Positions 3,129 through 26,837 of a stretch of 32,000 bases of DNA are shown piece by piece. Position numbers and translations under genes: made by a program. Numbering within the stretch: the first letter of the stretch is position 1; the number at the start of each line of letters is the position of its first letter. Source of the stretch: Pirellula staleyi DSM 6068 (GTDB taxonomy: Bacteria; Planctomycetota; Planctomycetia; Pirellulales; Pirellulaceae); the NCBI GenBank assembly GCA_000025185.1, contig CP001848.1, forward strand, positions 1,560,001 to 1,592,000, read 5' to 3'. The notes under the pieces were generated by a model that was not told the DNA's origin, made no database searches, and saw nothing but the letters and a program-made list of their open reading frames with translations.

Positions 3129-4262
3129 TTAGGTTTTCTGGTAGCTGCTGCGCCAAACTTGGGAAGTGAACGATGCTGTTTGCCAGCTGTCTTTCGTCTG
3201 ATACTCGCGTACGACGAGCTCTCCCTGATCCATCTCGACGTAGAAGAACGCCTGGTGACCGCCGCTGAAGTGGCTGGCGTTATCGGCATTGAAGACCTGG
3301 ATCCCCCGTTCGGCTTTCGGAGAGACCCCATCCCACAGGAACGCGCTTCGCGCATGGGTGTGGCCATAGAAGATCGCCGCGATGTTGTGGTCCTTGATCG
3401 CGCGGTAGAAGGCTTGCACGTCGCAGGGGTCCCATTCTTTACTTCCCGCGGGGATCGCCAAGTCGCACGCTGTGGTGTAGCGGGCAATGTCGATGTGATG
3501 CGTGATCACGATCGGCGTTTGGGGGTCGGCGACATTATCGCGCAGGTCTTCAAGCAGGAATTCGAGGCTCCCGGCAGCAGCGTAGCGCCGCTTGCGGTCG
3601 ATGGCCGAATCGCTACCCACGATCAGCCCCAGGTTGATGAAATGGATCCCATTCCAGTCCCACGAAAAATGGAGTCCATTCTTCGAGAGGCTGCGGAGGT
3701 CTTTTCGCTTTTTCGAGCGTGCGGCGATTTTGTCGAGGGCGTGACCTTCACCGCGCGGCGAATCGTGGTTTCCAAAAACTTCGTACACCGGGTACTTCAG
3801 CCGACCTTCGGTTCCAGTGACTCCATACTCTTCTTCGAATTTGGCGAACTCTGTCCGCTGCATCACCTTATGCACTGCACTTTGCTTGTCTCCGGTGTCG
3901 ATGATATCGCCGGTGTGAATCAGCCCGCGCGGCGCGATGACAGTCCCTCCGCCCGCTTCGGCAGGAATGGTTTCGCCTGGGAGCCGATTCAGCGTCTCGA
4001 CCAGCCGACCGCAGATGGCGGCAGAGGTTTCGTCGATCGCTTCGGGCTTCTCTTCCTGGGCGAGAAAGTGCGTATCACCAGCGACAAAAAACGCGATTTT
4101 TCCCTCGGAAGAGGCTGTTTTCGTCGGGGCTGCCTGAAGAGTGCAGGGAGTACCCACTCCGTGCGAAGCGAGCACGAAGCTGCCAGCGGTGAGCGACGTG
4201 CTGGTGAGAAACTGGCGCCGGGAAACAGGCTCGTGGCTCGTGGGTGGCAGGTGCTTGGTCAT
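3129..4262 (-). CDS. Secreted calcineurin-like metallophosphoesterase (Tat signal)
   Basis: 377 aa. Twin-arginine signal SRRQFLTSTSLTAGSFVLA. Metallophosphoesterase motifs GDTH, GDIIDTGD, GNHD, GHTH. Confidence 0.8.
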   Translation of the reverse strand: MTKHLPPTSHEPVSRRQFLTSTSLTAGSFVLASHGVGTPCTLQAAPTKTASSEGKIAFFVAGDTHFLAQEEKPEAIDETSAAICGRLVETLNRLPGETIPAEAGGGTVIAPRGLIHTGDIIDTGDKQSAVHKVMQRTEFAKFEEEYGVTGTEGRLKYPVYEVFGNHDSPRGEGHALDKIAARSKKRKDLRSLSKNGLHFSWDWNGIHFINLGLIVGSDSAIDRKRRYAAAGSLEFLLEDLRDNVADPQTPIVITHHIDIARYTTACDLAIPAGSKEWDPCDVQAFYRAIKDHNIAAIFYGHTHARSAFLWDGVSPKAERGIQVFNADNASHFSGGHQAFFYVEMDQGELVVREYQTKDSWQTASFTSQVWRSSYQKT

Positions 4263-4307
4263 CGGAGTTTCTCGCGGGAGAGGTGAAAGGAAGGGACGTT
4301 ACCAGCG

Positions 4308-5330
4308 CTAGCGTGCAGCCTCTTTCTCGGCTGTTGCAGCGGGAGAGCGAGTGAAGGTTTTTTCCAGCGGATAACGCCATTCCCACTCGGGAGCGTCGAT
4401 CACCGTGGCATCACGCTTCACATGATAAGCCAGGCGCATCTTCGTCTCGTTCAGCTCCACGAGAAAGAACCCTTTCTCGGTCTGGCCAGTGTTCACCACA
4501 TCGAGCGGCTTCGAAGCAGGATCTGGTTTCCACTGACGAACACCGGTGCCGGTATGCCCGTGAAAGAAGGCGATGACGTTGTACGGTTCCACAGCGCGAT
4601 AGAAGTTGACCCAGTCTTCGGCGACCCACCAGTTGGTATCGAAACCACAGTGCGCGACGATGATGACAGGCCGGCCCGAGTCTCCCACTTGCGACGCGAG
4701 ATCTTCTTTCACGAAGGTGAGCGCCAGCTGCGGATCGTGCCAGGGAAGGGAATAGCGCACGGCGCTATTCTGTCGGTCGGCCGGGTAGAGATTGGTTTGC
4801 ACGAAGTGAACGCCGTTCCAGTCCCAGCTGTAGTGCAAGCCGTTCTCGCTGACACGCGTGATCAGCTTCTTCTCGAGACGCACGGCGTTGCGCCGTTTGA
4901 CTTCTGCCTGCACACTCCGCTTCTGCTTAATGAAGGGGGCGGGAGGTCCATCGTGATTTCCAAAACCTTCGAAGACCGGATACTTCAGTTTGCCGTCGGT
5001 TCCATCGAGTCCAAACTGATCGACAAAATGTTGCCACTGGATTTCGGTCTCCCCCACTTTGTCGCCATCGTCGATCAGATCTCCCAAAGCCAGCACGCCG
5101 CGTGGCTCTCCGATGGGGCCTCCACCCAGTTTTGCGGGCCACTCGGCACTTGGGATCTGGTTCATCCGCTCGATCGTCACCAGATTGCGATCGTTACGCT
5201 CCACTTTTTCAACAGCTTCGTAGTGCGAGTCGGAAGTGACGATGAAGGTGAGGGGCTCGTCGGCACGCGCGTGCGCCGTCAGGCAGCATAGGAGCATCGT
5301 CAGTGTGATGCGGGAGAGAGCGAATCGCAT
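4308..5330 (-). CDS. Secreted calcineurin-like metallophosphoesterase, paralog of 3129..4262
   Basis: The track ORF runs to 5417. I prefer ATG 5330 (MRFALSRITLTMLLCCLTAHARA, a Sec signal) because GAGGT lies 4 nt upstream. Motifs SDSH, GDLIDDGD, GNHD, GHTG. Shares blocks with its neighbour (LHYSWDWNGVHF vs LHFSWDWNGIHF; KYPVFEGFGNHD vs KYPVYEVFGNHD). Confidence 0.8.
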   Translation of the reverse strand: MRFALSRITLTMLLCCLTAHARADEPLTFIVTSDSHYEAVEKVERNDRNLVTIERMNQIPSAEWPAKLGGGPIGEPRGVLALGDLIDDGDKVGETEIQWQHFVDQFGLDGTDGKLKYPVFEGFGNHDGPPAPFIKQKRSVQAEVKRRNAVRLEKKLITRVSENGLHYSWDWNGVHFVQTNLYPADRQNSAVRYSLPWHDPQLALTFVKEDLASQVGDSGRPVIIVAHCGFDTNWWVAEDWVNFYRAVEPYNVIAFFHGHTGTGVRQWKPDPASKPLDVVNTGQTEKGFFLVELNETKMRLAYHVKRDATVIDAPEWEWRYPLEKTFTRSPAATAEKEAAR

Positions 5331-5481
5331 GACAACCTCAACTTGCGGGTAGTGGGATGGGAGACAAAACCGATCTGCGGGATCTGCGACGGAGGATGGC
5401 TGAGGGAATTTTGCCAAGTACCGGTCAGACAGTATGTCGAGGTGACTGGCGGGTGTCTTGCCCGAAACGTGGGCCGCCAGT

Positions 5482-5517
5482 CGATTTTGCGCATAGAGGC
5501 CCGATTTTCGCGATTTT
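5482..5517. promoter_or_regulatory. Three direct CGATTTT repeats in a divergent promoter region (candidate AraC-type operator)
   Basis: CGATTTT at 5482, 5502 and 5511, between the metallophosphoesterase operon and the PAS-AraC gene. The first two copies extend to CGATTTTGCGC and CGATTTTCGCG and lie 20 bp apart. Confidence 0.3.
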
Positions 5518-5589
5518 GGAGTCGGTTGGGAGGCTTATTTTCGTGCGTGGTCAATCGAACTGTGGGGACGCTTGGGGTAGGCTACAGAA

Positions 5590-6321
5590 ATGTCCCATTC
5601 GCTTCTTCATAGCGTCCTTGCGCAGCTCGCCGAGCCCTTCACCGGGGAGATGATTTTTGATGCGCTGTCGGATGTCGTTTTCTTCTTGAAAAACGATCAG
5701 GGGCAGTATGTGCTGGTGAATCAAACCCTCGCCATGCGCTGCGGCATGAGCGACAAGCAGTCGCTGCTGGGCAAAACGGCGGCCGATGTCCTGCCGGCTC
5801 CTTTGGGGCACAATTGTTTGGAGCAAGACCGGCGCGTGATTACTTCGGGAGTGCCGCTGCTGAACGAGCTCGAGCTGCATCTCTACCCCAGTGGCGATGA
5901 AGGGTGGTGTCTGACGAACAAACTTCCGCTGCGTGGGGTCGGGGAAAAGTGCGTGGGGCTTGTCGGTTTCTCGCGCGATTTGCATGCCCCGACCGAAGAC
6001 TATCGCGATGTGGCCGAGGCACTGCGGAAGGTGCAAACGCGTCTCGAGCAGCCGATGACGGTCGACGATGTCGCCAAACTCGCGGGGCTCTCGACGTTTC
6101 AGCTCGACCACCGCATTCGCGAAGTGTTTCACGTTTCGGCAAGTCAACTGATGCTGAAGTTTCGACTCGACCGGGCGACGCAGCGGCTGCGCGACACCAT
6201 GCTGCCGATTGCTCACATCGCGCTCGAAATTGGCTACGCCGATCAAAGCAGTTTCACGCGGCAATTTCATCGGACGATTGGGCTGACACCAGCCGAGTAT
6301 CGCAAACGCTATCAGGCGTAA
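5590..6321 (+). CDS. AraC-family transcriptional regulator with N-terminal PAS-like sensor domain
   Basis: 243 aa. The C-terminus has an AraC HTH (IALEIGYADQSSFTRQFHRTIGLTPAEYRKRY). The N-terminal ~130 aa look PAS-like (FFLKNDQGQYVLVNQTLAMRCG...). Confidence 0.85.
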   Translation: MSHSLLHSVLAQLAEPFTGEMIFDALSDVVFFLKNDQGQYVLVNQTLAMRCGMSDKQSLLGKTAADVLPAPLGHNCLEQDRRVITSGVPLLNELELHLYPSGDEGWCLTNKLPLRGVGEKCVGLVGFSRDLHAPTEDYRDVAEALRKVQTRLEQPMTVDDVAKLAGLSTFQLDHRIREVFHVSASQLMLKFRLDRATQRLRDTMLPIAHIALEIGYADQSSFTRQFHRTIGLTPAEYRKRYQA

Positions 6322-6479
6322 AACGCTCGCCGCCGAAATTTCTGTAACGCCCATGACGGGGCGTGCATCCAAAGAGGTGTTGGCAGGCCGATTCCTGCCC
6401 CCATGGCTAGAGGGCAGATCGGCGCGACAGCCGCGTGCTCGATGCCCTAGAAAATCTTCTTAGAACAAGCGAAATTCGG

Positions 6480-6779
6480 ATGAAAATGCAGCTTCAAAAC
6501 GTCGTTCGTGGTGGCATTCTCCTGGCGAGCATCGTGCTGCTGGCCGGTTGTGGTTCGTCGGCTCCTGCCGGTGGGACAGCGGGTGGCGCAGGGGGCGAAA
6601 CGATGGAAGGCTCGGGGATGATGTCAGCCGAACCTGCCATGGGCGAGGGGATGATGTCGGAAGAGAAGCCGATGATGAGCGACAAACCCATGATGGAAGA
6701 AAAGGCCATGATGGAGGAGAAACCGATGATGGAAGAAAAGCCTGCTGGTGAAAAAATGATGGCCCCCGCGAAACCGTAG
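6480..6779 (+). CDS. Small methionine-rich lipoprotein (MM-doublet repeat protein)
   Basis: The track ORF starts at GTG 6435. ATG 6480 gives a canonical lipoprotein signal, MKMQLQNVVRGGILLASIVLLAG|C. The mature part has 16 Met in about 76 residues, no His and no further Cys. It contains KPMMSD/KPMMEE/KAMMEE/KPMMEE repeats. Confidence 0.7.
   Translation: MKMQLQNVVRGGILLASIVLLAGCGSSAPAGGTAGGAGGETMEGSGMMSAEPAMGEGMMSEEKPMMSDKPMMEEKAMMEEKPMMEEKPAGEKMMAPAKP
6666..6737 (+). repeat. Four in-frame 18-bp tandem repeats encoding K(P/A)MM(S/E)(D/E)
   Basis: aagccgatgatgagcgac / aaacccatgatggaagaa / aaggccatgatggaggag / aaaccgatgatggaagaa, followed by a degenerate fifth unit. Confidence 0.85.
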
Positions 6780-6890
6780 TGCGATCTCGCGCTGCGTCAT
6801 TTGCTTGCAAGCCTCACGGTACGAGCCTCTCCCGGGCGACTGGTCACCTGAAGTGACCGATCGCTTACCTCGATCAGTGGACGAGCGATC

Positions 6891-7463
6891 ATGCAACGAC
6901 GAACTTTTCTCGAGGCAGCCGCTGCGACGGTCGCCATCGGCGTAGCAGCTTGTATGCATCCGGCAGACGCGCTGGCTGGGGATGTTCCGCTAGCTCGCGC
7001 GTATCGAGCGCCGGAGCTCGCCGAGATTGAAAAATTCTTTCATACGAAAGCGAGTTCGCTGAGGGAATTCCGGGGCCAAGTGGTAGCGCTCCATTTCTGG
7101 ACCTACTCCTGCAGCAACTGCCTGGCGAACTTGCCGCACTACGCACGGTGGCATCACGATTTTGCCGCAGCGGGGCTCGTGGTCCTGGGAGTACACACCC
7201 CTGAATTTTCGGAAGAAGCGAAAATCGAGAACGTTGCTGAGCAGCTACAAGCACTGAAGATCGAGTATCCTGTGGCGATTGACAACCAGTTTGCTACGTG
7301 GAAGCAGTGGAAGAATCGTTACTGGCCGACTGTCCATTTGATCGATCGTCGGGGGGATGTTCGTGCCACTTGGATTGGCGAGCTGAACTGGAAAGCGTCG
7401 CGCGGCGAAGTGACCATGCGATCGCGTATCGAGGCGCTGCTCAAAGAGCAGCGCGACAGCTGA
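6891..7463 (+). CDS. TlpA/redoxin-like thiol-disulfide oxidoreductase with Tat-type signal
   Basis: 190 aa. MQRRTFLEAAAATVAIGVAA signal. Thioredoxin-fold CxxC in FWTYSCSNCLANLPH. VLGVHTPEF and YWPTVHLIDRRG are typical of the TlpA/ResA-like family. Confidence 0.8.
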   Translation: MQRRTFLEAAAATVAIGVAACMHPADALAGDVPLARAYRAPELAEIEKFFHTKASSLREFRGQVVALHFWTYSCSNCLANLPHYARWHHDFAAAGLVVLGVHTPEFSEEAKIENVAEQLQALKIEYPVAIDNQFATWKQWKNRYWPTVHLIDRRGDVRATWIGELNWKASRGEVTMRSRIEALLKEQRDS

Positions 7464-7526
7464 CCCTCCGGTAGCAACCTTATTCACCCCACCCCGAGTA
7501 GCTTGATGTCGCGCTAGGCACTTCGT

Positions 7527-7862
7527 ATGGATTGCTCGAAATTCTACGAGAAAATCGACGAACTTCGCGAAAAGAAACTTTCGCGATGGGAGTGGATTTC
7601 GATGCGCCTGCACTGGCTGATTTGTGGCGACTGTCGCCGCTATTTGGCGCAGTACCTGAAGACGATCGCCATCGCGCACGGTCTGGCGGCGGCGGAATTG
7701 CCAGCTGCGAAATTGGCCGATCCGATCGTCGAACAAATCGCGCGTGAAATGACGCAAGCGGTGAGGTCGGGCGATGCGCCGCAAGATCCAGCGTTTGATC
7801 CAGCGAGCGATCGCGAAGAGGACTCGGATCAGTCAGGCTCGGAGGGGCCGCAGTTAACGTAG
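7527..7862 (+). CDS. Soluble zinc-finger (ZAS, HxxxCxxC) anti-sigma factor candidate
   Basis: 111 aa. MDCSKFYEKIDEL...RLHWLICGDCRRYLAQY gives C3, H29-x3-C33-x2-C36, the same Cys-to-His spacing I recall for RsrA-type ZAS proteins. No hydrophobic segment. Acidic disordered C-terminus. Confidence 0.6.
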   Translation: MDCSKFYEKIDELREKKLSRWEWISMRLHWLICGDCRRYLAQYLKTIAIAHGLAAAELPAAKLADPIVEQIAREMTQAVRSGDAPQDPAFDPASDREEDSDQSGSEGPQLT

Positions 7863-8091
7863 TTGTTTATCGATCACTCGATGGACCCGTAGCACTCGGT
7901 CTAGCGATCCATGTCAGGTGTTTTTGGGTGCCACTGGCGTCACGCCAGAGCAGCAGATGGAACCGATGTTTTGGGCAAAATGTCCCTGAAAACAGAGTCC
8001 ATTTACACTTCTCACTGGGGAGAGCCCAGTGGCACACTGGATTGAAGCCTTTTCATTGCTGCATGACATTGATTGCTAGACGGAGTAGTAG

Positions 8092-8117
8092 GTCAGGTCC
8101 CCTCTCAGGGACCTGAC
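8092..8117. terminator. Perfect 10-bp-stem hairpin between convergent genes (terminator-like, no U tract)
   Basis: gtcaggtccc (8092..8101), ctctca loop, gggacctgac (8108..8117). Lies between the ZAS gene (+) and the ECF sigma gene (-). Confidence 0.35.
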
Positions 8118-8201
8118 ACGAGAGGAGCATGGCACCCAGGCTCAACCCAGGTTTGGGCCAGTTTGCGATTCTGGTCTGGTAGAACCGGACCTACTACCAA
8201 G

Positions 8202-8864
8202 CTACGCGCTGCTCCCCTTCATCAGGGGCGTAAGGAGTGTGCGAAGCGCAGCACGCGCGCGATGCAGCCGCGTTTTCACTGCCCCTTCGCTGATTTCAAG
8301 GATGCGAGCCGTTTCAGCGGTGTCGAGTTCCTCGAGATCGCGCAGTAGTAAAATGCTCCGAAAATCGTCCGGGAGTCGATCGATGCACGAGCGGACTTGC
8401 TCGCGCGACTCTTCACTGCAGAGGAGTTCGAGCGGGCTCCGTTTCCAAGCGAGAACACCCCCCTGATGATGACCGGTGGCGTCGAAATGGGGGAGCAGCT
8501 CGTCGAGGCTCACTGTGGGTCGCCGCCGATTTTTCCGGAGCTTCATCAGACAGACGTTCACCGCAATGCGGTGGAGCCAGGTGCCGAGTTCAGCCTCGCC
8601 TCGAAAGTTGCCGAGGCCACGCGCTGCGGCGACAAACGTATCCTGCAGCGCATCGGCGGCATCGTCGTCGCGCCCGAGCATGCGCCGCGCTACGGCCAGC
8701 ACCTGCGCTCCATACTGGCGCACGAGCTGCTCGCTCGCCGCGCGGTCTCCACTGGCTATCGCGCGGGCTAGCTGCTGCGGTTCTCGATCGAGATCCCCTC
8801 GGCTCACAGCAAAACCCTTGGCAGAACTGACGAGCGACAGCAGATCGGTGCGAGAGGGGACCAT
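8202..8864 (-). CDS. ECF-type RNA polymerase sigma-70 family factor
   Basis: 220 aa. Region 2 (DALQDTFVAAARGLGNFRGEAELGTWLHRIAVNVCLMKLRK) and region 4 (LPDDFRSILLLRDLEELDTAETARILEISEGAVKTRLHRARAAL). Confidence 0.85.
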   Translation of the reverse strand: MVPSRTDLLSLVSSAKGFAVSRGDLDREPQQLARAIASGDRAASEQLVRQYGAQVLAVARRMLGRDDDAADALQDTFVAAARGLGNFRGEAELGTWLHRIAVNVCLMKLRKNRRRPTVSLDELLPHFDATGHHQGGVLAWKRSPLELLCSEESREQVRSCIDRLPDDFRSILLLRDLEELDTAETARILEISEGAVKTRLHRARAALRTLLTPLMKGSSA

Positions 8865-9117
8865 CGAGATGGCGGCATGCGATCAGGCCCTACGTGAAGT
8901 TAGTCGAAGCGCGCAACGCCGTTTTCCGCTGAGGATACGACGTTTCCTAACCTTTGGATGCACAAGCTCGCCCAGAATTACAGCAATTTCCATTGTACAT
9001 TTCCTGTCGCCTCGTAACCTGTCATGATGCACGGATATCTAAGAGAAGAGCCACCCTCGGAAAGGTCCCTTTCTCTCGAGCGTGTGCCATTGCAGCACGT
9101 TTTTAGGCGTTACTTCC

Positions 9118-10107
9118 ATGAGTCAGTTATTACCCGACGATCAGCAGCAGTTAGAGCGCGAGGTGACCCCTCCGGAGCTCTATTTCTCACGTCGTAAGTT
9201 GCTCCAAGGAGCTGTCCTCGCGGGGACGCTGGTCGCCACCGGCGGCATCTATCGCGCGGCGTCGCATTCCGAGGAAGAGAAGGTCTCGAGCGAAGGGGTG
9301 ATCGAGCAGCTGGCCCGTCCCGATCAGTTTTCGGCCAGCGCTCTCGGACCCAGTGATGAACTGACCCCCGAAGAAACGATCATCAACTACAACAACTTCT
9401 ACGAATTCACGACCAGCAAGCAGGGCGTAGCGCGACTCGCACGCGATTTTCGCACCGACGGCTGGTCGATCAAAATCGATGGGCTTGTCGATAAGCCGCA
9501 AACGATTTCGCTCGACGATTTGATGTCGCTCGGTCCGGTCGAAGAGCGAATCTATCGCATGCGCTGCGTCGAAGCGTGGTCGATTGTGGTCCCTTGGGCA
9601 GGCATTCCACTCCATCGCTTGCTCGAAAAAGTTCAGCCGCAGTCGACTGCCAAGTATGTCGCGTTCGAAACCCTGTTTGATCCCGTGCGTATGCCGAATC
9701 AAAACTCGGGAGTGCTAGACTGGCCGTATCTCGAGGGCCTTCGACTCGACGAAGCGATGCATCCACTCACGCTGCTGGCGACCGGGCTCTACGGCAAAGC
9801 GATGCCGCCGCAAGATGGTGCGCCGGTGCGGCTCGTCATTCCGTGGAAGTATGGGTTCAAAGGGATCAAGTCGATCGTCCGCATTTCACTCACTGCGACC
9901 GAGCCGGTTTCGACCTGGAACCGGATGGCGCCGTATGAGTATGGCTTCTACGCCAACGTGAACCCCGAGGTACCTCATCCGCGCTGGAGCCAGGCGACCG
10001 AGCAGCGACTCGGAGAATTTGGACGTCGCGACACGCTGATGTTCAACGGCTATGGCGAGCAAGTGGCATCGCTCTACGAAGGGATGAACCTGGAAGTCAA
10101 CTTTTAG
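9118..10107 (+). CDS. msrP: Periplasmic protein-methionine-sulfoxide reductase, molybdopterin catalytic subunit MsrP (YedY)
   Basis: Near-colinear with E. coli MsrP as I recall it ([77 protein letters not shown]). Tat signal [13 protein letters not shown]. The track ORF starts at GTG 9082; ATG 9118 is preferred. Confidence 0.9.
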
Positions 10108-10220
10108 TAGCGGCTGTTTTTCTGGAGAAATACAGCAGAAAACGGCCTTTGCAGTGTTCCTTCGCAATGTTCCTTCGCTTCGTCTCTTTGCCCACCTAGC
10201 AGCTTCTGAAATTTGATCCG

Positions 10221-11978
10221 ATGAACGAACTTCGATTCTGGAAACTTGTGGTGATTCTCAACAGCGGAGTTCCGCTGGCGATCTTGGCTTGGGATGCCGC
10301 GCAAGGTTCGCTCGGCGCGAATGCCGTGAGCTATGCCATTCACACCACTGGCTACCTCTCGCTCTTGATGCTGATGTTCTCGCTGATGGTGACACCACTG
10401 CGCTGGCTCACCGGCTGGAACAGTGTGGTGGGAATTCGTCGCGCGCTCGGCGTGTATGCCTTCATCTATGCCGCTGTGCATTTGGCGATCTATTTTACGT
10501 TCGATCGTCAGATGAGCCTCGTGAGCACCGCGACGGAAATCGCGTCGCGCGTCTATCTGATGATTGGCTTTGCCGCACTCTTGCTGATGGCACCACTGGC
10601 GCTGACCTCCACCAGCGCGATGGTGGTCAGGCTTGGCGCGAAGAACTGGAAGCTGCTCCATCGACTCACCTACGTCGTGGCGATTTTGGGAGTGCTCCAC
10701 TTCTACTTGCTGGTGAAGGCCGACGTTGGTGAACCTGTTAGTTTCGCTGCTTTTCTCGCGGTTTTGCTCCTCGCGCGAGTCGTTTGGCCCTACCTCGATC
10801 TCGCACCGCGTCGCAAAAAGATGCTCGCTAAAAAGAGCCTTTCAGCAGAGCCCATGAGCACCGCTGTCAGCACACAGCGCGCGAAGACCAAGGCTTGGAG
10901 TGGCGAACTGGTGGTCGCTTCGATCACGCGTGAAACGCCGAGCGTGCAAACGTTTCGACTACAGCCGATCGAAGGTGGAACTTTGCCGTTTGAATTCGAG
11001 CCGGGTCAATTCCTATCACTCGCGATCGAGATCGCAGGGCGACGTCAGCGCCGGAGTTACACCATCGCCAGTTCCCCTCTCGAGCGCACATTCTGCGAGC
11101 TCACCATCAAGCGCGAAGAGCACGGCACTGTCTCGCGACATCTGCACGACAATCTGCAGCCGGGCGATCGACTGACAGTCACCGCGCCAGCTGGAAAATT
11201 TGTTTTCAGCGGCAAGAGCGCTACGTCTGTTGTGCTGATCGCCGGCGGTGTGGGAATCACCCCGCTGATGTCGATGGCGCGGTACTTAGTCCAGACGAAT
11301 TGGTCGGGCTCGATCGATTTTGTAATCGTCGCCAAGAGCGAAAAAGAGCTGATTTTCCGCCGTGAAATCGAAGCGATGCAGCGCACTTTTTCGCGTCTGC
11401 AGATTCATATTACTCTGTCGCAGGAGATGGACGATTCGAGCTGGAGTGGGAAGCAAGGACGACTCGAAGCGACGTGGCTCTCGTCATGCTGCGCAGATCT
11501 TCGTACGCGGCCGATCTATCTTTGTGGTCCTGATGGAATGATGCAGCAGACGCGCGAAATGCTCCTCGCGCTCGGTGTTCCGCCTGCTAATCTGCACCAA
11601 GAGGCGTTTACTTCCTCGAGTGCTCGCGCCGAAAAAATGGAGCTCGCGCCGGTCGCTGCATCGGCCGCGCGCATGGAACCTGCGCTCCCGACGTTCCTGG
11701 TCGATTCGCCAAGCGCCGAGCATCAAGTGCAGTTCGTGCGGCAGCAAGTGGCGGCCGATGTGCGCGACGATATCACCGTGCTCGAAGCTGCCGAATCGCT
11801 CGGGGTTGCGATCCCCTACGAGTGTCGCGCGGGGGTCTGCGGGCAATGCAAAGTGCGGCTGACGCACGGTCATGTCGCGATGGATTCGCAGTCCGCGCTA
11901 TCACCGCAAGAGAAAGCTTTTGGCTGGATTCTCGCCTGCCAGGCGACACCTCGAACCAATCTCGAAGTCGAGGTGTAA
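10221..11978 (+). CDS. msrQ: MsrQ (YedZ, ferric-reductase-like haem b membrane domain) fused to an FNR-like FAD/NAD(P)H reductase and a C-terminal plant-type 2Fe-2S ferredoxin
   Basis: Residues 1-190 align with E. coli MsrQ, including His87/His147/His160 at the 60- and 13-residue spacing of its haem ligands. Residues ~226-465 carry RRSYTIAS (RxYS FAD motif) and GGVGITP (NAD(P)H motif). Residues ~500-585 carry C535-x4-C540-x2-C543-x29-C573. Confidence 0.85.
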   Translation: MNELRFWKLVVILNSGVPLAILAWDAAQGSLGANAVSYAIHTTGYLSLLMLMFSLMVTPLRWLTGWNSVVGIRRALGVYAFIYAAVHLAIYFTFDRQMSLVSTATEIASRVYLMIGFAALLLMAPLALTSTSAMVVRLGAKNWKLLHRLTYVVAILGVLHFYLLVKADVGEPVSFAAFLAVLLLARVVWPYLDLAPRRKKMLAKKSLSAEPMSTAVSTQRAKTKAWSGELVVASITRETPSVQTFRLQPIEGGTLPFEFEPGQFLSLAIEIAGRRQRRSYTIASSPLERTFCELTIKREEHGTVSRHLHDNLQPGDRLTVTAPAGKFVFSGKSATSVVLIAGGVGITPLMSMARYLVQTNWSGSIDFVIVAKSEKELIFRREIEAMQRTFSRLQIHITLSQEMDDSSWSGKQGRLEATWLSSCCADLRTRPIYLCGPDGMMQQTREMLLALGVPPANLHQEAFTSSSARAEKMELAPVAASAARMEPALPTFLVDSPSAEHQVQFVRQQVAADVRDDITVLEAAESLGVAIPYECRAGVCGQCKVRLTHGHVAMDSQSALSPQEKAFGWILACQATPRTNLEVEV

Positions 11979-12028
11979 GCAGTGGTGCGCGATGGCCTGC
12001 GTTTGATTTTCGCAGCTTCTTTCGCAGC

Positions 12029-12475
12029 CTATTTCGCTTCTTCTTTGGACTCGGGCGGTGCTGCTTTTGCTGCGGCGAGCGGCTTCCCTTCCACGGTCTT
12101 CACCCCGTCGCGCGCGACCGAGACGATGACGTAGCGAAATCCAGGACGTAAGTCGCGCGTCGCGAGTCCGAGGACTTTCAAGTCACCCTCGTCGGTAAGT
12201 CTGACAGTCACACGCAAGCGACTCCCCGAGGTGGTTTGCACCACAACCAGTGCTTTCTCGAAGTCGACCTTCGGCGTTTCGCCAGCGAGCTTCCACGCTT
12301 TCCAAAGTTCCTCGAATTCCTGGGGAGTGCTGATCGCGGTCGAAAACTTTCCCAGCAGTTCGGCATCTTCTACCGAACCGCTGAAGGTCATCAGAGGCTC
12401 GAGCGTTTTGTCTTCCGCCACAGCCGACGACCAGGTGATCCCGAGGAGCAAAAGTGCGAGTAGAGCCGTGCGCAT
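12029..12475 (-). CDS. Hypothetical secreted protein
   Basis: The track ORF extends to 12634. ATG 12475 gives a Sec signal, MRTALLALLLLGITWSSAVA|EDK. No recognised domain. Lys/Glu/Ala-rich C-terminus. Confidence 0.5.
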   Translation of the reverse strand: MRTALLALLLLGITWSSAVAEDKTLEPLMTFSGSVEDAELLGKFSTAISTPQEFEELWKAWKLAGETPKVDFEKALVVVQTTSGSRLRVTVRLTDEGDLKVLGLATRDLRPGFRYVIVSVARDGVKTVEGKPLAAAKAAPPESKEEAK

Positions 12476-12719
12476 GACATGAGTTCCTGAAGGGAGAAGC
12501 GTGGGAAGCGACCGATAAGCAGCAAGCGATGAACGCTGGCAAAAACTCTCTGCGAGCACGTTTCCAATCTTACCGCGCGTCGAGCGAATGGCTGTTAGCG
12601 ACGACGTGACAGATGGGTCTCGCTGCTCAGTCAAGTAGAGACGATGCGGCCGAAGGAAAGGTTTTCAGAGGAGGAGCCGAAAGCGATTTTGTCAGGAGAA
12701 TCTGCTCCGCTTTAGGACT

Positions 12720-13160
12720 TTAGGCCTCTTCGCCCCGCGCTGCCAGGCAGGCGATCAGCTTGCGCAGCAAGCGCGCCATGGCATTGCGATCGGCGGAGGA
12801 GAGATCGTCGTAAAGTGCGGTCACCGCGCCATGTTCGCTCGACAGCAGAATCTGCTTGCAGACCGATTTTCCGTTGGGAGTGAGGTGAATCATCGTCGCC
12901 CGCCGATCGGTGGGGTGAGCTGCACGGAGCACCAGCCCCTCTCCTTCCAGGGCATCGACCAGCTTGGTGATACTGCGTGGAGTTACGCCAAGTTGCACGC
13001 CGAGGTCGCTCATTTTCAGCGATCCCTCGCAGCTCAGGGCCAGCAGCAAACGGGCTCGGGCGGGAGTGGTGCCGGTGTGCTCGAGCTGTTTGGCTAGCCA
13101 GCGTGTGTAGGCTTTTCCAAAGCGTCCCATCATGGCAGCGAGCTCAGCAGAGTCGGTCAT
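12720..13160 (-). CDS. MarR-family transcriptional regulator
   Basis: 146 aa. Winged-helix block MSDLGVQLGVTPRSITKLVDALEGEGLVLRAAHPTDRRATMIHLTPNG. AAGGAA Shine-Dalgarno 5 nt upstream of the ATG. Confidence 0.85.
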   Translation of the reverse strand: MTDSAELAAMMGRFGKAYTRWLAKQLEHTGTTPARARLLLALSCEGSLKMSDLGVQLGVTPRSITKLVDALEGEGLVLRAAHPTDRRATMIHLTPNGKSVCKQILLSSEHGAVTALYDDLSSADRNAMARLLRKLIACLAARGEEA

Positions 13161-13225
13161 CAGTTTCCTTTAGGGTAGCGCAGGCGGCGCGCTCGGTGGG
13201 CTCGACGGAGTCAGCTTGACTCAAT

Positions 13226-13238
13226 TACTAGACTAGTA
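13226..13238. promoter_or_regulatory. Perfect palindrome TACTAG-A-CTAGTA in the marR divergent promoter (candidate MarR operator), overlapping -35/-10-like hexamers
   Basis: TTGACT at 13216..13221 and TACAAT at 13237..13242 (15-nt spacer), or CAATAT at 13239..13244 (17-nt spacer). The palindrome lies between and over them. Confidence 0.4.
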
Positions 13239-13311
13239 CAATATCCGCCAAGACCACTACTTGGCTTTCCCCTCACGGCGTGCGTCTGCACGCCAGACTT
13301 TGGAGTTTGTC

Positions 13312-15222
13312 ATGCCCGATCCCTTCAAGCAAGCTCCCAGTGTGGCAGGGGCCGAAAACCGCGAAAGTAGCCAAAAAATCCCAGAAAACCAGGTGTCGAG
13401 TGATCTGAGCACGAGTGCGCCGCAAGAATCGACGCAGCTAGCTTCGCACACGCCGCGCCTCTGGCCCGCCGTGGTGATCGTCGCGCTACTCTGGGTCGCG
13501 CGGATCGTGGCCAGCACCGTTTTCTCCGGAACTCCGACCGAGTTCATGACTATGCTCTTCGCGCCGATGGCGGCGACCGTGGTCCTGTTTTTGTGGTGGC
13601 TTGGGCTCTCGAAGCTCGCTTGGATCGACCGCCTGTGGGGCATCTTCATCGTGGTCATCGTTGGCGCGATTGCCGGTCAGCTGATCGATAAGTCGATGCC
13701 GCTCGGGATGGTGATGTTTGCGCTGCCGGTGGTGCTGACGATCGTCGTGGCCTGGCTTGTGGTAACGCGCGGCGCGAACTCGTGGAACCATCGCGCGGGG
13801 CTGGCGCTGGTGACTTGTTTAGCGTGGGGCTACTTCACGCTGCTGCGCGTCGATGGTATCGATGGCCACATGAACGTCGATACGCGCTATCGCTGGGAGC
13901 CGACAGCCGAATCGGAGTTTCTCGCGCAGCAAACGAAAACGGCGAGCCCCCCTGCTCTTCCGGCTGCCAGTGCAAACGCGCCTGTAACGCTCGTGGCCAC
14001 GGAGTCCGATTGGCCCGAATTTCGAGGGAAAAACCGTGATTCCCGCCGCGCGGGGGTGATGCTCGCAACCGACTGGAGCAAGTCGCCACCCAAACAACTC
14101 TGGCGACAATTGATCGGTCCCGGGTGGGGCTCGCTGGCAGTCGTCGGCAACTATGTCTTCACGCAGGATCAGCGCGGCGAGAACGAAGCGGTGATCTGTC
14201 TCGATCTTGCGACCGGCAAAGTCCGGTGGCTGTTTGAGCATCCAGCCCGTTTTTGGGAAGTGGTGGCGGGAGCTGGTCCACGCGCCACGCCGACGTTCCA
14301 TGAAGGTCGACTCTACACCTTCGGCGGTAGTGGCAAACTGCATTGCCTCGAAGCTGCCACCGGTGCCGTCATCTGGTCGCGCGATGTCGCGGCAGACGCC
14401 AAGGCCACCGCGCCGCAGTGGGGCTTTTCAAGCTCGCCACTCGTCTTCGAAGGAGTCGTTTGCGTCTTTGCCGGTGGAAGCGAAAACAAGTCGCTGATGA
14501 CCTACGATGCACTTTCGGGCGAGCCCCTCTGGTCGGCTGGCAGCGGCGTGCTGAGCTACAGTTCTCCCCACGCAGCCACGCTGCATGGCCGCTCGCAAAT
14601 TCTGTTTGCCAGCGAACTCGGACTCGAAGCGTACGAACCCAAAACCGGCAAGCTCCTGTGGAATCATCCTTGGAAGCTCGAAGGGATGGCCCGCGTGGTT
14701 CAGCCGCACTTGCTCCCGGGGAACAAAATCCTGATCGGCACCGGCTATGGCAACGGCACGATGCTGATCGAACTCAAACACGACGGCGAGACCTTCACCA
14801 CTGTCGAAGGTTGGCTGACGAAAGAGATGAAGCCTTACTTCAACGACTTTGTGTCGCGCGATGGTGTGCTGTATGGTTTCGACGGCGCGATCTTCGGTGC
14901 GATCGATCTGGCGACCGGCGATCGGCTCTGGAAAAAGGGACGCTACGGGCACGGGCAAGTGCTGCTGGTCGAGCCGCAGGGACTGCTCGTGGTAATTTCC
15001 GAAACCGGTGATCTCGTGCTGCTGGAAGCCAGCGCCGAGAAACATATCGAGCTGGCGAAGATCCGCGCACTTACAGGGAAGACCTGGAACCATCCGGTGC
15101 TGGTCGGCAACAAGCTGCTGCTCCGCAACGGAACGGAAGTCGCCTGCTACGAGCTCGCCACTCAGCCCGCCGAGCTGTCGGCTGTTTCAACCAACGCTGA
15201 GGCACCCCGATCCGCGCGGTAG
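13312..15222 (+). CDS. Polytopic membrane protein with C-terminal PQQ-like (BamB-type) beta-propeller domain
   Basis: The track ORF starts at TTG 13261. ATG 13312 has GGAG 9 nt upstream. About 5 hydrophobic helices in the first 210 aa. Then DWPEFRGKNRDSR and repeated W-containing propeller blades (VICLDLATGKVRW, HCLEAATGAVIW, YDALSGEPLW, YEPKTGKLLW, IDLATGDRLW). Confidence 0.75.
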   Translation: MPDPFKQAPSVAGAENRESSQKIPENQVSSDLSTSAPQESTQLASHTPRLWPAVVIVALLWVARIVASTVFSGTPTEFMTMLFAPMAATVVLFLWWLGLSKLAWIDRLWGIFIVVIVGAIAGQLIDKSMPLGMVMFALPVVLTIVVAWLVVTRGANSWNHRAGLALVTCLAWGYFTLLRVDGIDGHMNVDTRYRWEPTAESEFLAQQTKTASPPALPAASANAPVTLVATESDWPEFRGKNRDSRRAGVMLATDWSKSPPKQLWRQLIGPGWGSLAVVGNYVFTQDQRGENEAVICLDLATGKVRWLFEHPARFWEVVAGAGPRATPTFHEGRLYTFGGSGKLHCLEAATGAVIWSRDVAADAKATAPQWGFSSSPLVFEGVVCVFAGGSENKSLMTYDALSGEPLWSAGSGVLSYSSPHAATLHGRSQILFASELGLEAYEPKTGKLLWNHPWKLEGMARVVQPHLLPGNKILIGTGYGNGTMLIELKHDGETFTTVEGWLTKEMKPYFNDFVSRDGVLYGFDGAIFGAIDLATGDRLWKKGRYGHGQVLLVEPQGLLVVISETGDLVLLEASAEKHIELAKIRALTGKTWNHPVLVGNKLLLRNGTEVACYELATQPAELSAVSTNAEAPRSAR

Positions 15223-18460: not shown

Positions 18461-20086
18461 CTACTCCAGTTCGTCGACCGGTGGAACGGGTGGAACGGCG
18501 GGGCGTGGTTCCATCTCTTCCATCTCTTCCATTTCCATCATCGGTGGTGGCAAACGCTCGATCATGTTAGGCATGGCGTAAGGCATCGGTTGACGGAAGC
18601 GAATTTCCCAGCCGCCACCCATCGCCTTGTAAATTTGCACCATGCTCTTCGCCACGTTCCCTTGCGAAGTGGCATACTCATCTTGCTGCTGCACGAGGAG
18701 CGTTTCGAGATCGAACACCTGGGTGTAGTCGACCTGTCCTTTATCTTCCTTCTGGTTCACCACGCGGACCGCTTCCTGAGCATAGCCCACGCTCTCTTCC
18801 AGTTTGTCGCGCTGCATTTGGTAGCGGAGGAACGAGACAATGGCGTTTTCAGCCTCTTCGTTCGCCACGAGCACCGTCTGCTGATAGGCGGCGATACGCT
18901 GTTCGAGAATCGCGTCTTGCACCGACACCAGGTTGCGGAGGCGACCATAGTTCAGCACATTCCAGCGGAAACCAGGTCCGACCGAACCTTGCCAGGCGTT
19001 CGGGGCAAACAGGTTGGGGAACTGCGATGCTTCCATCGTCAGCGCACCGTTGATCGAGATCGTGGGATAGAGATCGGTCTGAGCGATACCAATTTGTTCC
19101 GACTGGGCAGCGACGAGTCGCTCGGCGCGGCGCACATCGGGACGACGACGGAGCAGCGAAGCAGGGACATCGAGCGTGACCGTATCACCCACCTTCGGCA
19201 CACCCCTGGAAGGCCCGAGGATGTAGCTCAGATCGTGCGGAGGCATTCCCAGCAGCACCGCCAGGCGGTTCTGCGTTTGACGTTTCGCGAGCTCGAGTAG
19301 GTGGACAGCCGCCTCGGTGCGCGTGAGGTTAGCAAGCGACTGTGGCGCGTCGATTTCGCTGTTGATCGCTTCCGCTTTCTTGCGGGCGACACGAATGTCA
19401 GCACTACGCTTTTGCTGCTGGATATTCGTCAGAGCGTAGTCGATGCGCTGTTCGAACGTGCGATAGTCGATGTAGGCCGACGCAGTTTCGGCGATCAGCA
19501 GCACGAGGGCATCGTCGTATGCTTCGATCGACGCATCGAGGTTGGCATCGGCTGCTTCGATCGAGCGGCGATAGCGTCCCCAGAAGTCGAGTTCCCAGCC
19601 GATAGCGCCACCGAGCGACCAGTTGTCGTAGTTGGTGACGAGCAGCCCTGGGGGCAACGCACCACCCTGCGGAAACGTGGCGGTTTGTTGGCTACGCTGT
19701 AGACGCGCGTAATCGCCCGTCAGCTGCTGCGATTGGGGCCAGAGGTTGCCAGCCACTGCGGATCGCATGGCTTGCGACTCGGCGATACGGAAACCAGCTT
19801 CGCGGATCGAGATGTTCTGCTGATAGGCGATTTCGATGACAGCATCGAGTCGTTTATCGTTGAACACCTTCCACCAGTCGGCGCTGAGCATTTCGCCGCG
19901 CTGGACCTTGGGGTTGTAAGAATCGATCCAGTCGTTGGAGACTGGGGCTGCCGGCTTGGCATAGTTGGGGCCAACTTTGAAGCCGTTGCGGAAGTAGCTA
20001 CCGATGCCGGTGCAGCCGCTGCTCGTGGTCAGGACCACGGCTAGCAAGAGCCCGACGAGGCATGAATTGAACGAACGGGAGAGCAT
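18461..20086 (-). CDS. RND efflux outer-membrane factor lipoprotein (NodT/TolC family) with Met/Glu-rich C-terminal extension
   Basis: Lipobox LTTSSG|C. OMF-typical blocks (DLYPTISINGA, YKAMGGGW). AGGAGG Shine-Dalgarno upstream of ATG 20086. About 45 extra residues follow the GGGW end motif. Confidence 0.85.
   Translation of the reverse strand: MLSRSFNSCLVGLLLAVVLTTSSGCTGIGSYFRNGFKVGPNYAKPAAPVSNDWIDSYNPKVQRGEMLSADWWKVFNDKRLDAVIEIAYQQNISIREAGFRIAESQAMRSAVAGNLWPQSQQLTGDYARLQRSQQTATFPQGGALPPGLLVTNYDNWSLGGAIGWELDFWGRYRRSIEAADANLDASIEAYDDALVLLIAETASAYIDYRTFEQRIDYALTNIQQQKRSADIRVARKKAEAINSEIDAPQSLANLTRTEAAVHLLELAKRQTQNRLAVLLGMPPHDLSYILGPSRGVPKVGDTVTLDVPASLLRRRPDVRRAERLVAAQSEQIGIAQTDLYPTISINGALTMEASQFPNLFAPNAWQGSVGPGFRWNVLNYGRLRNLVSVQDAILEQRIAAYQQTVLVANEEAENAIVSFLRYQMQRDKLEESVGYAQEAVRVVNQKEDKGQVDYTQVFDLETLLVQQQDEYATSQGNVAKSMVQIYKAMGGGWEIRFRQPMPYAMPNMIERLPPPMMEMEEMEEMEPRPAVPPVPPVDELE
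18480..18535 (-). repeat. Short in-frame 9-bp tandem repeats inside the OMF tail
   Basis: ggtggaacg x2 (18480..18497, encoding PVPPVP) and ttccatctc x2 plus ttccatttc (18509..18535, encoding EMEEMEEME). Confidence 0.8.
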
Positions 20087-20250
20087 CCTTGCCCCCTCCT
20101 TGGTACGCGTAAGTGGCTGCCGATCCCTGGCGCCACCGATTTAATGCACACACAAGGAAGGATCGGCACACTAGGCACGATCGGATTACTAGGAACGGGG
20201 GGCACCGGTCAGTCTCGCTCACCGGAGCAGCAGGAATCTCCGGCAAAGTT

Positions 20251-20285
20251 TGCCTCGCGAGAGTTGTTGAGCCTCTCGCAAGGCA
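20251..20285 (-). other. Strong intercistronic stem-loop between the RND and OMF genes
   Basis: 13-bp stem, 9-nt loop. The single mismatch is C-A on the plus strand but G.U on the minus-strand transcript, which suggests it functions as RNA in the operon sense. Confidence 0.45.
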
Positions 20286-20296
20286 GTTTGTAGCGA

Positions 20297-23485: not shown

Positions 23486-23495
23486 ATTCCGCTTA

Positions 23496-24908: not shown

Positions 24909-25297
24909 GGAACATTCCTTCGGTGGACCTCGCCGCGCCAGCATCTCGTCGAGCGGCTTGCGCGGTCCCATCACCAGCACGAAACAGATTTCGCAGAACG
25001 TCGCCGAGTTCGTCAGCTTCACGACCCGCCCTGAAGAGACGCACACGCCCTATCGGTGCGCATGGCTGCTACGAGCGATAGTCGTGTGGCAGTCCGGCCG
25101 ATCGACAAATCCTTGCGAGCACCCTTGCAGCTAGATCGACGCGGCGTGATGTGTCACGAGCGCGAGAAGCTGTAGCGATCGCGGAGACTCTGTGGAGTAT
25201 CGGCAGGATTCGTTTAGGAAGCTAACGATTAGCGTCCGCACGATTTTAGTTAACCTACTCCCCCAAAGGCAAGAGATTTTCTGCGCTACGCAGTAAA

Positions 25298-25321
25298 GAA
25301 AAGCGGCCAGCCGCACTTTTC
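25298..25321 (-). terminator. Candidate terminator downstream of nrdB
   Basis: gaaaagcggc pairs with gccgc(a)cttttc (10 bp, one bulge). On the minus strand the GC core is followed by TTTTCTTT. A second hairpin, ctgcg-cta-cgcag, lies at 25281..25293. Confidence 0.4.
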
Positions 25322-25634
25322 CGGCGATTGACGACTCCAAAACGAAGAGGGAGCCGCTCGGCAAAGGTTCGGGGCTGATGCACAGCCAGCCGCCAGTTGT
25401 CAGGAGGCTCGGCTGGCTTGGAAACGTGCTGGCGGACTGCCAGGATGACAGTAAGTGTTTTTCATTATTCGACTTAGGGCGTTTTCTGCTAGGTTTCTGG
25501 CCGCTCCGCCAGATTGCGCCTATTAATAGGTCTCGCTTTAAGTCAGCCACTCCCCTGGGAAATGGCTGACCCACGATCGACCGCCTGCAAATGCTACAAG
25601 CTGTGTAGCAGATGCTCCTCCAACACTCCGCTAA

Positions 25635-26729: not shown

Positions 26730-26776
26730 AACTCGTAAATAGATGTGGACTAATAAGGTACAAATTCAAAGATAAA

Positions 26777-26837
26777 TCTTGAGAAAATGCGCACTTGTTG
26801 CGCAAAAACTGCGCACAAATGGCTCAAGAGAAGCGCA
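26777..26837 (-). repeat. Phased TGCGCA hexamer array enclosed by a 7-bp stem in the nrdA-nrdB spacer
   Basis: TGCGCA at 26788, 26799 and 26810 (exact 11-bp period), and AGCGCA at 26832 (2 x 11 further). tcttgag (26777..26783) pairs with ctcaaga (26823..26829) and encloses the three perfect copies. Confidence 0.5.

Follow-up and report, generated by a model that had tools for sequence, protein, structure and literature searches.

A putative ECF sigma factor regulon for envelope methionine repair in Pirellula staleyi, built around MsrP and a reductase-fused MsrQ

A 32-kb stretch of the genome of Pirellula staleyi DSM 6068 (hereafter the window; all positions are given in whole-window numbering) was analyzed for a group of six neighboring genes that includes msrP and msrQ. 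These encode a methionine-rich (Met-rich) lipoprotein, an exported thioredoxin-fold protein, a small soluble protein of the ZAS (zf-HC2) anti-sigma type, an extracytoplasmic function (ECF) sigma factor, the periplasmic methionine sulfoxide reductase MsrP, and an MsrQ that is fused to FNR-like and ferredoxin domains. The six genes appear to form one stress regulon, a new arrangement of parts known in other bacteria. A first-pass annotation of this DNA had claimed six open reading frames (ORFs) at 6435–11978, and all of them were found there with the features it described. It is likely, in our judgment, that the region constitutes a three-promoter ECF sigma regulon for envelope defense and repair against methionine oxidation. 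The gene identities were established by sequence analysis, and the features of the region are as follows.

6344–6372, plus strand: predicted ECF-type promoter of the Met-rich gene, GTAAC-N17-CATCCAA, about 107 nt 5′ of ATG 6480
6480–6779, plus strand: Met-rich lipoprotein gene; likely start at ATG 6480 in an ORF that opens with GTG 6435; lipobox LLAG/C
6775–6796, plus strand: terminator-like hairpin over the Met-rich stop codon, on weak evidence possibly a partial terminator
6891–7463, plus strand: exported thioredoxin-fold protein with CSNC and an RR signal, of the DipZ C-terminal-domain type
7527–7862, plus strand: soluble ZAS (zf-HC2) anti-sigma candidate with C3, H29, C33 and C36
7863–8201, no strand: convergent intergenic gap between the ZAS and sigma genes; its inverted repeats are nested, and one forms a perfect 10-nt hairpin at 8092–8117
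8202–8864, minus strand: gene of an RpoE/SigW-like ECF sigma; the linker from region 2 to region 4 has the motif FDATGHH
8954–8981, minus strand: predicted autoregulatory promoter of the sigma gene, GTAAT-N16-CATCCAA
9014–9042, plus strand: predicted ECF-type promoter of msrP, GTAAC-N17-TATCTAA, about 76 nt 5′ of ATG 9118
9118–10107, plus strand: msrP, periplasmic molybdoenzyme methionine sulfoxide reductase with a twin-arginine (Tat) signal; the ORF opens at GTG 9082
10221–10790, plus strand: MsrQ membrane domain of the fusion, with R73/R74, H87, H147 and H160 kept
10911–11555, plus strand: FNR-like FAD and NAD(P)H module of the fusion, with R278-x-Y-T, GGVGITP and C435-G-P
11742–11978, plus strand: C-terminal plant-type 2Fe-2S ferredoxin domain and stop, with C535, C540, C543 and C573 invariant

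An ECF-type motif, GTAAC-N16/17-(C/T)ATC(N)AA, heads three units of the region: the Met-rich/thioredoxin/ZAS genes, msrPQ, and the sigma gene. Perfect copies stand at 6344 and 9014. When the pattern was allowed up to one mismatch, three hits were obtained in the 32-kb window against 0.34 expected; in 100 shuffles this number was never reached. Relaxing the scan across the whole window revealed one further copy in promoter position, on the minus strand at 8981–8954 and about 90 nt 5′ of the sigma start codon; the module is therefore predicted to have three promoters. The −35 of this additional copy deviates at one position, and 12 nt of the −10 region (GTGCATCCAAAG) are identical to the −10 region of the Met-rich promoter. 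It stands back-to-back with the msrP promoter in the shared intergenic region. The −35 GTAAC(C) and the spacing are those of the ECF16 consensus, tGTAACc-N16-CGAA, which has been described for SigF, BcrS and EcfF in the control of msrPQ and Met-rich peptides (PMC3511200; PMC8315932; PMC3420878), whereas the −10 reads CATC(N)AA and CGAA occurs in some sites only.

The motif was found to be kept in related loci, which are given here by our own numbers. In L078, whose MsrQ fusion is 62% identical to that of the window, it precedes the Met-rich gene (6413) and msrP (8810), although the intergenic DNA has otherwise diverged. In L123 it lies before the Met-rich gene (8210) and, on the other strand, before an operon that ends in the sigma ortholog, with a copy bearing one −35 mismatch directly 5′ of the ZAS gene. 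The thioredoxin-like gene of L079 is likewise preceded by the motif. Two further loci were chosen through their sigma factors. L165 has a perfect motif directly 5′ of the ZAS ortholog and another before a copper-storage (Csp) gene, and L166 has six copies within 14.6 kb, including one before a bufferin-like cluster, one before NDH-2 and two before small genes beside OsmC and AhpC. Overall, 14 occurrences of the strict motif were counted in the 120 kb of the seven sigma-ortholog loci, where 200 shuffles gave 1.02 ± 1.03 and never more than 5. A further 81 MsrQ-fusion loci (711 kb) yielded 9 occurrences, not significantly above the 5.5 ± 2.4 expected. Of the 16 strict hits recorded in the first survey, 8 stood in the proper orientation 15–140 nt 5′ of a gene for a Met-rich, MsrP or thioredoxin-like protein. 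In L081 and L083, where the sigma is unrelated, no motif was seen in promoter position before the module genes, and the hits lay inside msrP/msrQ or far off. The proposal that the adjacent ECF sigma co-regulates these genes from a shared ECF promoter thus receives in-silico support from a motif that is conserved and specific to this sigma.

The sigma protein matched the Pfam families Sigma70_r2 and r4_2 and scored 101.6 bits with TIGR02937 (cutoff 42.9), which places it among the ECF (group 4) sigma factors; its closest solved relatives are RpoE, AlgU and SigW. Membership of the system in ECF16 was considered and rejected, since the module encodes no NrsF/DUF1109 six-helix anti-sigma and the candidate partner is a soluble ZAS protein. 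This candidate comprises 111 residues with no hydrophobic segment and the pattern C3-x25-H29-x3-C33-x2-C36, that is, the Cys3-His motif on an N-terminal helical domain of class I ZAS anti-sigma factors. A word-indexed search with the protein returned only a 99%-identical copy; an exhaustive search yielded 22 representatives, nearly all of 78–131 residues. In the alignment of 24 family members, the only invariant columns were C3, H29, C33 and C36, which are the four ZAS zinc ligands, and 20 of the 24 pass Pfam zf-HC2 individually. A phmmer search of the PDB sequences with the protein alone gave only noise; the best PDB hits of the family profile were RsiW (5.6e-07), RslA (0.002) and DdvA (0.005), with ChrR and RsrA just below. 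In the AlphaFold2 model built with the alignment, pLDDT was ≥90 over residues 1–50 and three confident helices were seen in residues 1–57, the remainder being weak. The idea that the soluble HxxxCxxC protein is a ZAS protein was hence borne out by the family alignment, the zf-HC2 matches and the anti-sigma profile hits. The candidate shares with the anti-sigma factors of the Streptomyces SigR-RsrA and B. subtilis SigW-RsiW pairs the Cys3-His zinc site on an N-terminal helical domain. It is soluble like RsrA, whereas RsiW is membrane-anchored and regulated by proteolysis; it differs from both in its very distant sequence and in having no extra conserved cysteines, and redox sensitivity is a property that cannot be read from its sequence.

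MsrP scored 452 bits with the NF003767 equivalog (cutoff 207) and 118 bits with the molybdopterin-binding family PF00174, and is 61% identical to E. coli MsrP over 257 residues, including the RMRCVEAWS stretch. Its Tat motif is SRRKLL, and msrQ begins 113 nt downstream. The equivalog score well above cutoff, the conserved Cys, the Tat motif and the presence of msrQ as the next gene downstream all agree with the identity first assigned. The downstream protein, of 585 residues, contains the Pfam domains Ferric_reduct, FAD_binding_6, NAD_binding_1 and Fer2. Residues 3–189 scored 145 bits with the MsrQ equivalog NF003831 (cutoff 130), and this domain shares 31% identity with MsrQ of E. coli. Across 28 fusion sequences R73, R74, H87, H147 and H160 are invariant; they align with E. 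coli R77, R78, H91, H151 and H164, of which the roles of R77, R78 and H151 have been described (PMC12525009). Also invariant are the R278/Y280/T281 FAD motif, the G342–P348 NAD(P)H motif and C535/C540/C543/C573, and the attached modules have the motifs of an FNR-like reductase with a plant-type ferredoxin (PaaE/GbcB-like).

An exact look-up of the fusion protein of the window gave no match, and a scan of genome contigs with the fusion as a single query gave only Proteobacterial GbcB/PaaE-like domains (L001–L076) and no MsrQ-fusion loci. A metagenome scan gave at least 582 relatives, and more than 120 full-length fusion homologs of 46–62% identity were among the matches listed, several of them named from Planctomycetes. 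In all 39 loci whose sequence reaches far enough, the gene directly upstream of the fusion gene is msrP; the fusion is therefore considered a genuine MsrQ and not a generic ferric reductase. This linkage, together with the conservation of all cofactor motifs, fits the earlier description of a self-powered MsrQ. The Ferric_reduct+FAD+NAD+Fer2 architecture has been catalogued before as model M8 (PMC3591440), where von Rozycki et al. (2004) are cited on YedZ fusions to electron carriers; no functional study of the architecture was found in the literature. The fusion is like the long forms of NOX/FRE (PMC3591440) in having a transmembrane heme domain, cytoplasmic FAD and NAD(P)H domains and an added ferredoxin. 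Unlike these, its membrane domain is of the YedZ/MsrQ type, with Arg in place of the first heme His and a single heme plus a flavin site, and since the fusion is always paired with msrP, its acceptor is presumably MsrP rather than O2 or Fe(III). Compared with the MsrPQ/HprSR/Fre system of E. coli (PMC12525009), MsrP is homologous and all MsrQ heme and flavin residues are kept. However, E. coli MsrPQ is controlled by a two-component system where ECF/ZAS control is predicted here, and E. coli MsrQ is a standalone protein with electrons from a separate flavin reductase and/or quinones, whereas in Pirellula the reductase is attached and includes a 2Fe-2S domain.

Read from ATG 6480, the Met-rich protein has 99 residues, and its mature part of 76 residues contains 16 Met (21%), 13 Glu and 7 Lys and is devoid of His and aromatic residues. 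An 18-nt tandem repeat of 4.7 copies (6659–6742) encodes its (M)EEKPMM units. The protein shares several traits with MrpX and BcrX: it is exported, contains about 20% Met, is rich in charged residues, is encoded beside msrPQ, and has the shared motif upstream. Its resemblance to MrpX is one of composition, and it probably works like MrpX. In L079 (7764–9967), frameshifts appear to interrupt two genes, that of the Met-rich lipoprotein and msrP; they are likely sequencing errors in an 8.3-Mb long-read assembly and not signs of pseudogenes.

The thioredoxin-fold protein (190 residues) matches Pfam AhpC-TSA, Thioredoxin_8 and Redoxin. Its CSNC motif is accompanied by the twin-arginine motif QRRTFL at the N terminus and by a cis-Pro loop, WPT. 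It had been called a Tat-exported TlpA-like protein; the twin-arginine signal, CSNC and thioredoxin fold were upheld, and the TlpA part was replaced by a DipZ-type assignment. Among solved structures it comes closest to the thioredoxin-like C-terminal domain of DipZ from M. tuberculosis (2hyx, E=1e-32). Identity with TlpA was rejected, as evidenced by 18.7 bits with the NCBIfam TlpA equivalog (cutoff 230), and so was identity with ResA (48 bits, cutoff 170). The FW.YSC.NC context of the active site and the WP cis-Pro loop are shared with the DipZ domain (2hyx, 5cyy). Unlike DipZ, the Pirellula protein is standalone, without a CcdA-like membrane domain or a carbohydrate-binding module, and has a twin-arginine signal. 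Thioredoxin-like homologs are also present near msrPQ in L078, L079 and L081.

The scheme that we infer from these features extends to the stimulus, the binding of sigma by ZAS, the Met-rich protein as a sink, the path of the electrons and the task of the thioredoxin-like protein. At rest, the soluble ZAS protein would hold the ECF sigma inactive. A thiol-reactive signal (HOCl, H2O2, possibly copper) would disrupt the Cys3-His zinc site and free the sigma, which would then transcribe from the predicted GTAAC-N16/17-(C/T)ATC(N)AA promoters, for which comparative genomics provides support. The consequences would be threefold: (i) transcription of the Met-rich lipoprotein/DipZ-like thioredoxin/ZAS operon, with negative feedback through newly made anti-sigma, (ii) transcription of msrP-msrQ, and (iii) transcription of the sigma gene itself, with positive feedback. 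By analogy with MrpX and BcrX, the membrane-anchored Met-rich protein would take up oxidant as methionine sulfoxide (Met-O) and may bind Cu(I). MsrP would reduce it, along with other oxidized envelope proteins, back to Met. The electrons would travel through one polypeptide, from NAD(P)H to FAD, to the 2Fe-2S center, to the MsrQ flavin site and heme b, and from there to the Mo center of MsrP, a path suggested by the domain order and the conserved cofactor motifs. The thioredoxin-like protein probably repairs or reduces periplasmic thiols.

A number of observations weigh against this reading. The motif was first derived from the window itself, by a side-by-side view of two upstream regions. L079 has motifs and no sigma gene within 10 kb, and the sigma family is very large, with 6805 hits at E ≤ 1e-30; a paralog could therefore read the motif. 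The Met-rich protein had no Pfam or NCBIfam match at E ≤ 0.01. The window ZAS protein itself falls below the Pfam zf-HC2 threshold and scored 38.5 bits with NCBIfam “antisigmaE” (cutoff 50), and a Foldseek search of the PDB with its model gave no structural match. Its gene converges on the sigma gene across a gap of 340 bp and does not lie downstream of it in the same operon. In our neighborhood survey, which took in 23 MsrQ-fusion loci whose sequence extends 3 kb or more beyond the msrP start, an ECF sigma gene was near msrPQ in 9, a Met-rich ORF adjoined msrP in 8 (the window included), a small HxxxCxxC protein was encoded nearby in 6, and a DipZ-like thioredoxin in 4. Such low counts indicate that the accessory parts are optional. 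To these points must be added the copper-handling genes beside two sigma orthologs, in L165 and L166, which argue that chlorine or oxidant may not be the stimulus.

A copper-stress module, in place of one directed at chlorine or other oxidants, is possible but doubtful. The sigma/ZAS pair would sense copper or copper-driven thiol damage, the Met-rich lipoprotein would be mainly a periplasmic Cu(I) binder or buffer, and MsrPQ would keep its thioether ligands reduced, along with those of other copper proteins. Such a module overlaps with the methionine-repair regulon and differs from it in the signal and in the chief role of the Met-rich protein. The latter has neither His nor the MxxM/MxxH spacing of known periplasmic copper binders; its MM doublets lie in an acidic, lysine-rich repeat, much like those of MrpX and BcrX (PMC4436054; PMC8315932), and there is no copper efflux or oxidase gene inside the module. 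The genes around the sigma orthologs point the other way. The ortholog in L165 (61% identical) adjoins an exported Csp gene (PF03860); at 3623–4544 this gene lies directly downstream of the ZAS ortholog, each of the two having its own motif copy. In L166 the ortholog adjoins a motif-bearing bufferin-like cluster with DUF2282-like precursors, MbnB/DUF692, DoxX and DUF2063, and yet another ortholog has a Csp gene upstream and msrPQ downstream. Furthermore, the SigF copper-stress regulon of Caulobacter includes the bufferins (PMC11626156), the copper chaperone CusF is repaired by MsrP in copper-stressed E. coli (PMC9302797), and Met-rich domains recruit Cu(I) (PMC11494321). The place of the bufferin cluster in the Caulobacter regulon and the Csp gene beside the ortholog make copper a serious alternative or additional stimulus. 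The signal named by the first-pass annotation, chlorine or oxidant, was corrected accordingly: judging from the motif sites before the Csp and bufferin genes of the orthologs, copper may induce the system as much. The bufferin-like cluster of L166 (2787–6457 and 9734–13998), which is of the ribosomally synthesized and post-translationally modified peptide type, has two Cys-rich exported precursors, and a second, paralogous sigma gene is adjacent on the opposite strand.

A second question is whether the 111-residue zinc-finger protein is the cognate anti-sigma at all. It might instead be the regulator of another sigma factor, or a member of the regulon with a different role, and the sigma would then be controlled otherwise, for example by transcription alone or by partner switching. 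We regard this as unlikely. It is true that the two genes are convergent and 340 bp apart in the window, that no ZAS gene is near the sigma orthologs of L167 and L094, and that the co-transcribed gene overlapping the sigma start in L123, L165, L166 and JGI 3300047160 encodes an 88–101-residue STAS-like protein and not a ZAS protein. However, four loci (window, L078, L123 and L165) have orthologs of both ZAS and sigma, each in an arrangement of its own. In three of these four loci the ZAS gene stands behind a perfect sigma-associated motif, either as the last gene of the Met-rich operon (window and L078) or directly (L165), and the L123 copy has the one −35 mismatch. L169 has a canonical sigma/anti-sigma operon in which the gene of a ZAS family member, P0244, overlaps a related ECF sigma gene at the 3′ end of the latter; that sigma has the unusual FDxxGH linker motif of the window sigma. 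The L134 cluster, where two ZAS genes come after an ECF sigma gene next to msrPQ, also favors the pairing. The best match of the ZAS profile, RsiW, is moreover the partner of SigW, which is among the closest solved relatives of the sigma. The pairing of sigma and ZAS, put forward with reserve at first, is strengthened as a prediction by the motif-driven ZAS genes, the L169 overlap and the anti-sigma profile hits. In L123 (4668–7649), L165 (4629–7663) and JGI 3300047160, the sigma ortholog is also co-transcribed with a sigma54-type enhancer-binding protein (GAF-PAS) besides the STAS-like protein; P. staleyi is without both genes of this operon. Their presence suggests an extra partner-switching or sigma54 layer in these relatives, and control of the sigma family may hence exceed a simple ZAS switch.

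The complete six-gene order was observed only in the strain group of the window and in L078, and a near-identical locus is present in the metagenome-assembled genome GCA_002483025.1. In L078, unrelated flanking genes (metallophosphoesterase, MarR and a PQQ protein) are syntenic as well, and most MsrQ-fusion loci have no accessory genes; that the genes are adjacent merely through inherited synteny of the Pirellula lineage, with no common regulation and a motif arisen by chance, is nevertheless highly improbable, given that the motif is 14-fold enriched and only so in sigma-ortholog loci, that half of the 16 strict hits are properly placed before Met-rich, MsrP or thioredoxin-like genes, and that distant loci contain genes of these types in other orders. 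Co-occurrence of the gene neighborhood, which had been proposed as a check on the module, was seen for the parts, in shuffled form, whereas the full six-gene set was confined to close relatives. As far as the surveyed gene orders show, msrP and the msrQ fusion make up a constant core, to which optional and interchangeable sensor and sink parts are attached.

In L081 (7431–8832) and L083 (5122–6284), the sigma and the small Cys/His protein are unrelated to those of the window: the ECF sigma is co-transcribed with a 79–91-residue protein that has a C-terminal HxxxCxxC, and a Met-rich ORF of (MAGDKM)n repeats follows, directly upstream of msrPQ. This arrangement appears to have reached the same wiring independently. 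L134 (4023–11842) encodes an ECF sigma, two tandem ZAS genes, a DUF1223-like protein and an exported MsrB-MsrA fusion, and further on an SDR, a peroxiredoxin-like protein, MsrP and the MsrQ fusion; it is a larger methionine-repair cluster with the same sensor type.

The combination of genes had been presented as undescribed, which overstated its novelty. ZAS/ECF control of an exported Msr is known from Neisseria and Haemophilus (PMC7907618), the fusion architecture is catalogued (PMC3591440) and widespread, and an ECF sigma with a Met-rich peptide and MsrPQ is already known from Azospira and Brucella. A search of the literature found no paper linking Planctomycetes with MsrPQ. The closest counterparts are the ECF16 systems SigF/NrsF-YedY1Z1-MrpX of Azospira suillum and BcrS/AbcS-BcrXQP of Brucella melitensis (PMC4436054; PMC8315932). 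They have in common with the Pirellula locus an ECF sigma gene divergent from an msrP/msrQ operon, an associated exported protein of about 20% Met, sigma and target promoters placed back-to-back with predicted autoregulation of the sigma gene, and a −35 GTAAC(C) with 16–17-nt spacing. The differences are as follows: (i) the candidate anti-sigma here is a soluble 111-residue ZAS protein, whereas theirs is the six-helix membrane protein NrsF (DUF1109), (ii) the −10 is CATC(N)AA here, with CGAA in some sites only, and CGAA there, (iii) the Met-rich protein is here a lipoprotein that is transcribed apart from msrPQ and matches neither MXKDX nor a curated family, and (iv) MsrQ here carries FNR and ferredoxin domains on the same polypeptide, the gene set includes a DipZ-like thioredoxin, and the host is a planctomycete.

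With regard to the sensor, the sigmaE/MseR system of Neisseria meningitidis and RpoE2/HrsE of Haemophilus influenzae (PMC2893595; PMC7907618) are nearer, as a small cytoplasmic ZAS protein controls an ECF regulon that repairs envelope Met-O, which is what we propose here. This regulon has been assigned to ECF group 13, and its reported inducers are HOCl for the H. influenzae system and H2O2 for Neisseria (PMC7907618). It includes a DoxX/DUF692/DUF2063 cluster (PMC7907618), and the sigma ortholog in L166 adjoins such a cluster. The repair enzyme there is, however, the thiol-dependent Trx-MsrA-MsrB (plus MtsZ) where it is MsrPQ here; sigma and anti-sigma genes share a transcript in those species, and no Met-rich protein takes part.

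The remaining observations concern the DNA between and around the six genes. The gap at 7863–8201 contains the inverted repeats 7894–7916/8064–8086, 7928–7948/8015–8035 and 8085–8098/8184–8197; as the convergent gap in L078 is only 19 bp long, this sequence is probably an insertion or an elaborate bidirectional terminator. An AraC-PAS regulator gene (5590–6321) stops 23 nt short of the −35 of the Met-rich promoter. P. staleyi and near-identical strains carry this regulator gene; it is absent from the L078 locus and was left out of the module on that ground. Also left out, as they are kept only with general synteny, were MarR and the secreted protein at 12029–12634 (minus strand), an ORF of 201 residues that is called as 148 residues in relatives, has no family match and converges on msrQ. 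In L077, L078 and L162 the latter is kept with MarR and a PQQ beta-propeller protein, probably by plain synteny. Large minus-strand ORFs at 18461–30047 (541, 1062, 516 and 1059 residues) carry no motif copy; their sizes suggest efflux-pump genes, and the L077 counterpart of the 541-residue ORF matches the outer-membrane efflux protein family OEP. An Rfam scan of 5000–13500 found no riboswitch or small RNA, including no molybdenum cofactor riboswitch in the msrP leader. A sigma-70 promoter scan gave no more than shuffles did, and terminator-like hairpins were not enriched (9 found, 7.0 expected in shuffles).

The analysis provides a concrete, testable ECF promoter motif and a target set for Planctomycetota, a phylum with almost no characterized sigma regulons. 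It suggests that the periplasmic strategy of a Met-rich sink plus MsrPQ, described from a few Proteobacteria, has been reassembled with a soluble ZAS sensor in place of NrsF or a two-component system. The widespread MsrQ-reductase fusion, always beside msrP, is strong genomic evidence that cytoplasmic NAD(P)H, and not the quinone pool, can feed MsrP; it bears on the unsettled question of the electron donor of MsrQ and offers a convenient single-polypeptide system. The occurrence of the same motif before the copper-storage and bufferin genes of orthologous sigma factors points to a shared response to copper and oxidants. On this basis we advance a broader proposal, tentatively and with less confidence than the local regulon: the sigma/ZAS family may define a planctomycete-wide envelope stress regulon with GTAAC(C)-N16-CATC(N)AA promoters that joins copper buffering (Csp and bufferins) to methionine repair, with Pirellula having a tethered methionine “battery” recharged from NAD(P)H through MsrQ-FNR-ferredoxin. 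Such a regulon would be the functional counterpart of the ECF16 (SigF/NrsF) and the Neisseria/Haemophilus sigmaE/RpoE2 regulons and, if true, would settle the disputed source of MsrQ electrons for this lineage.

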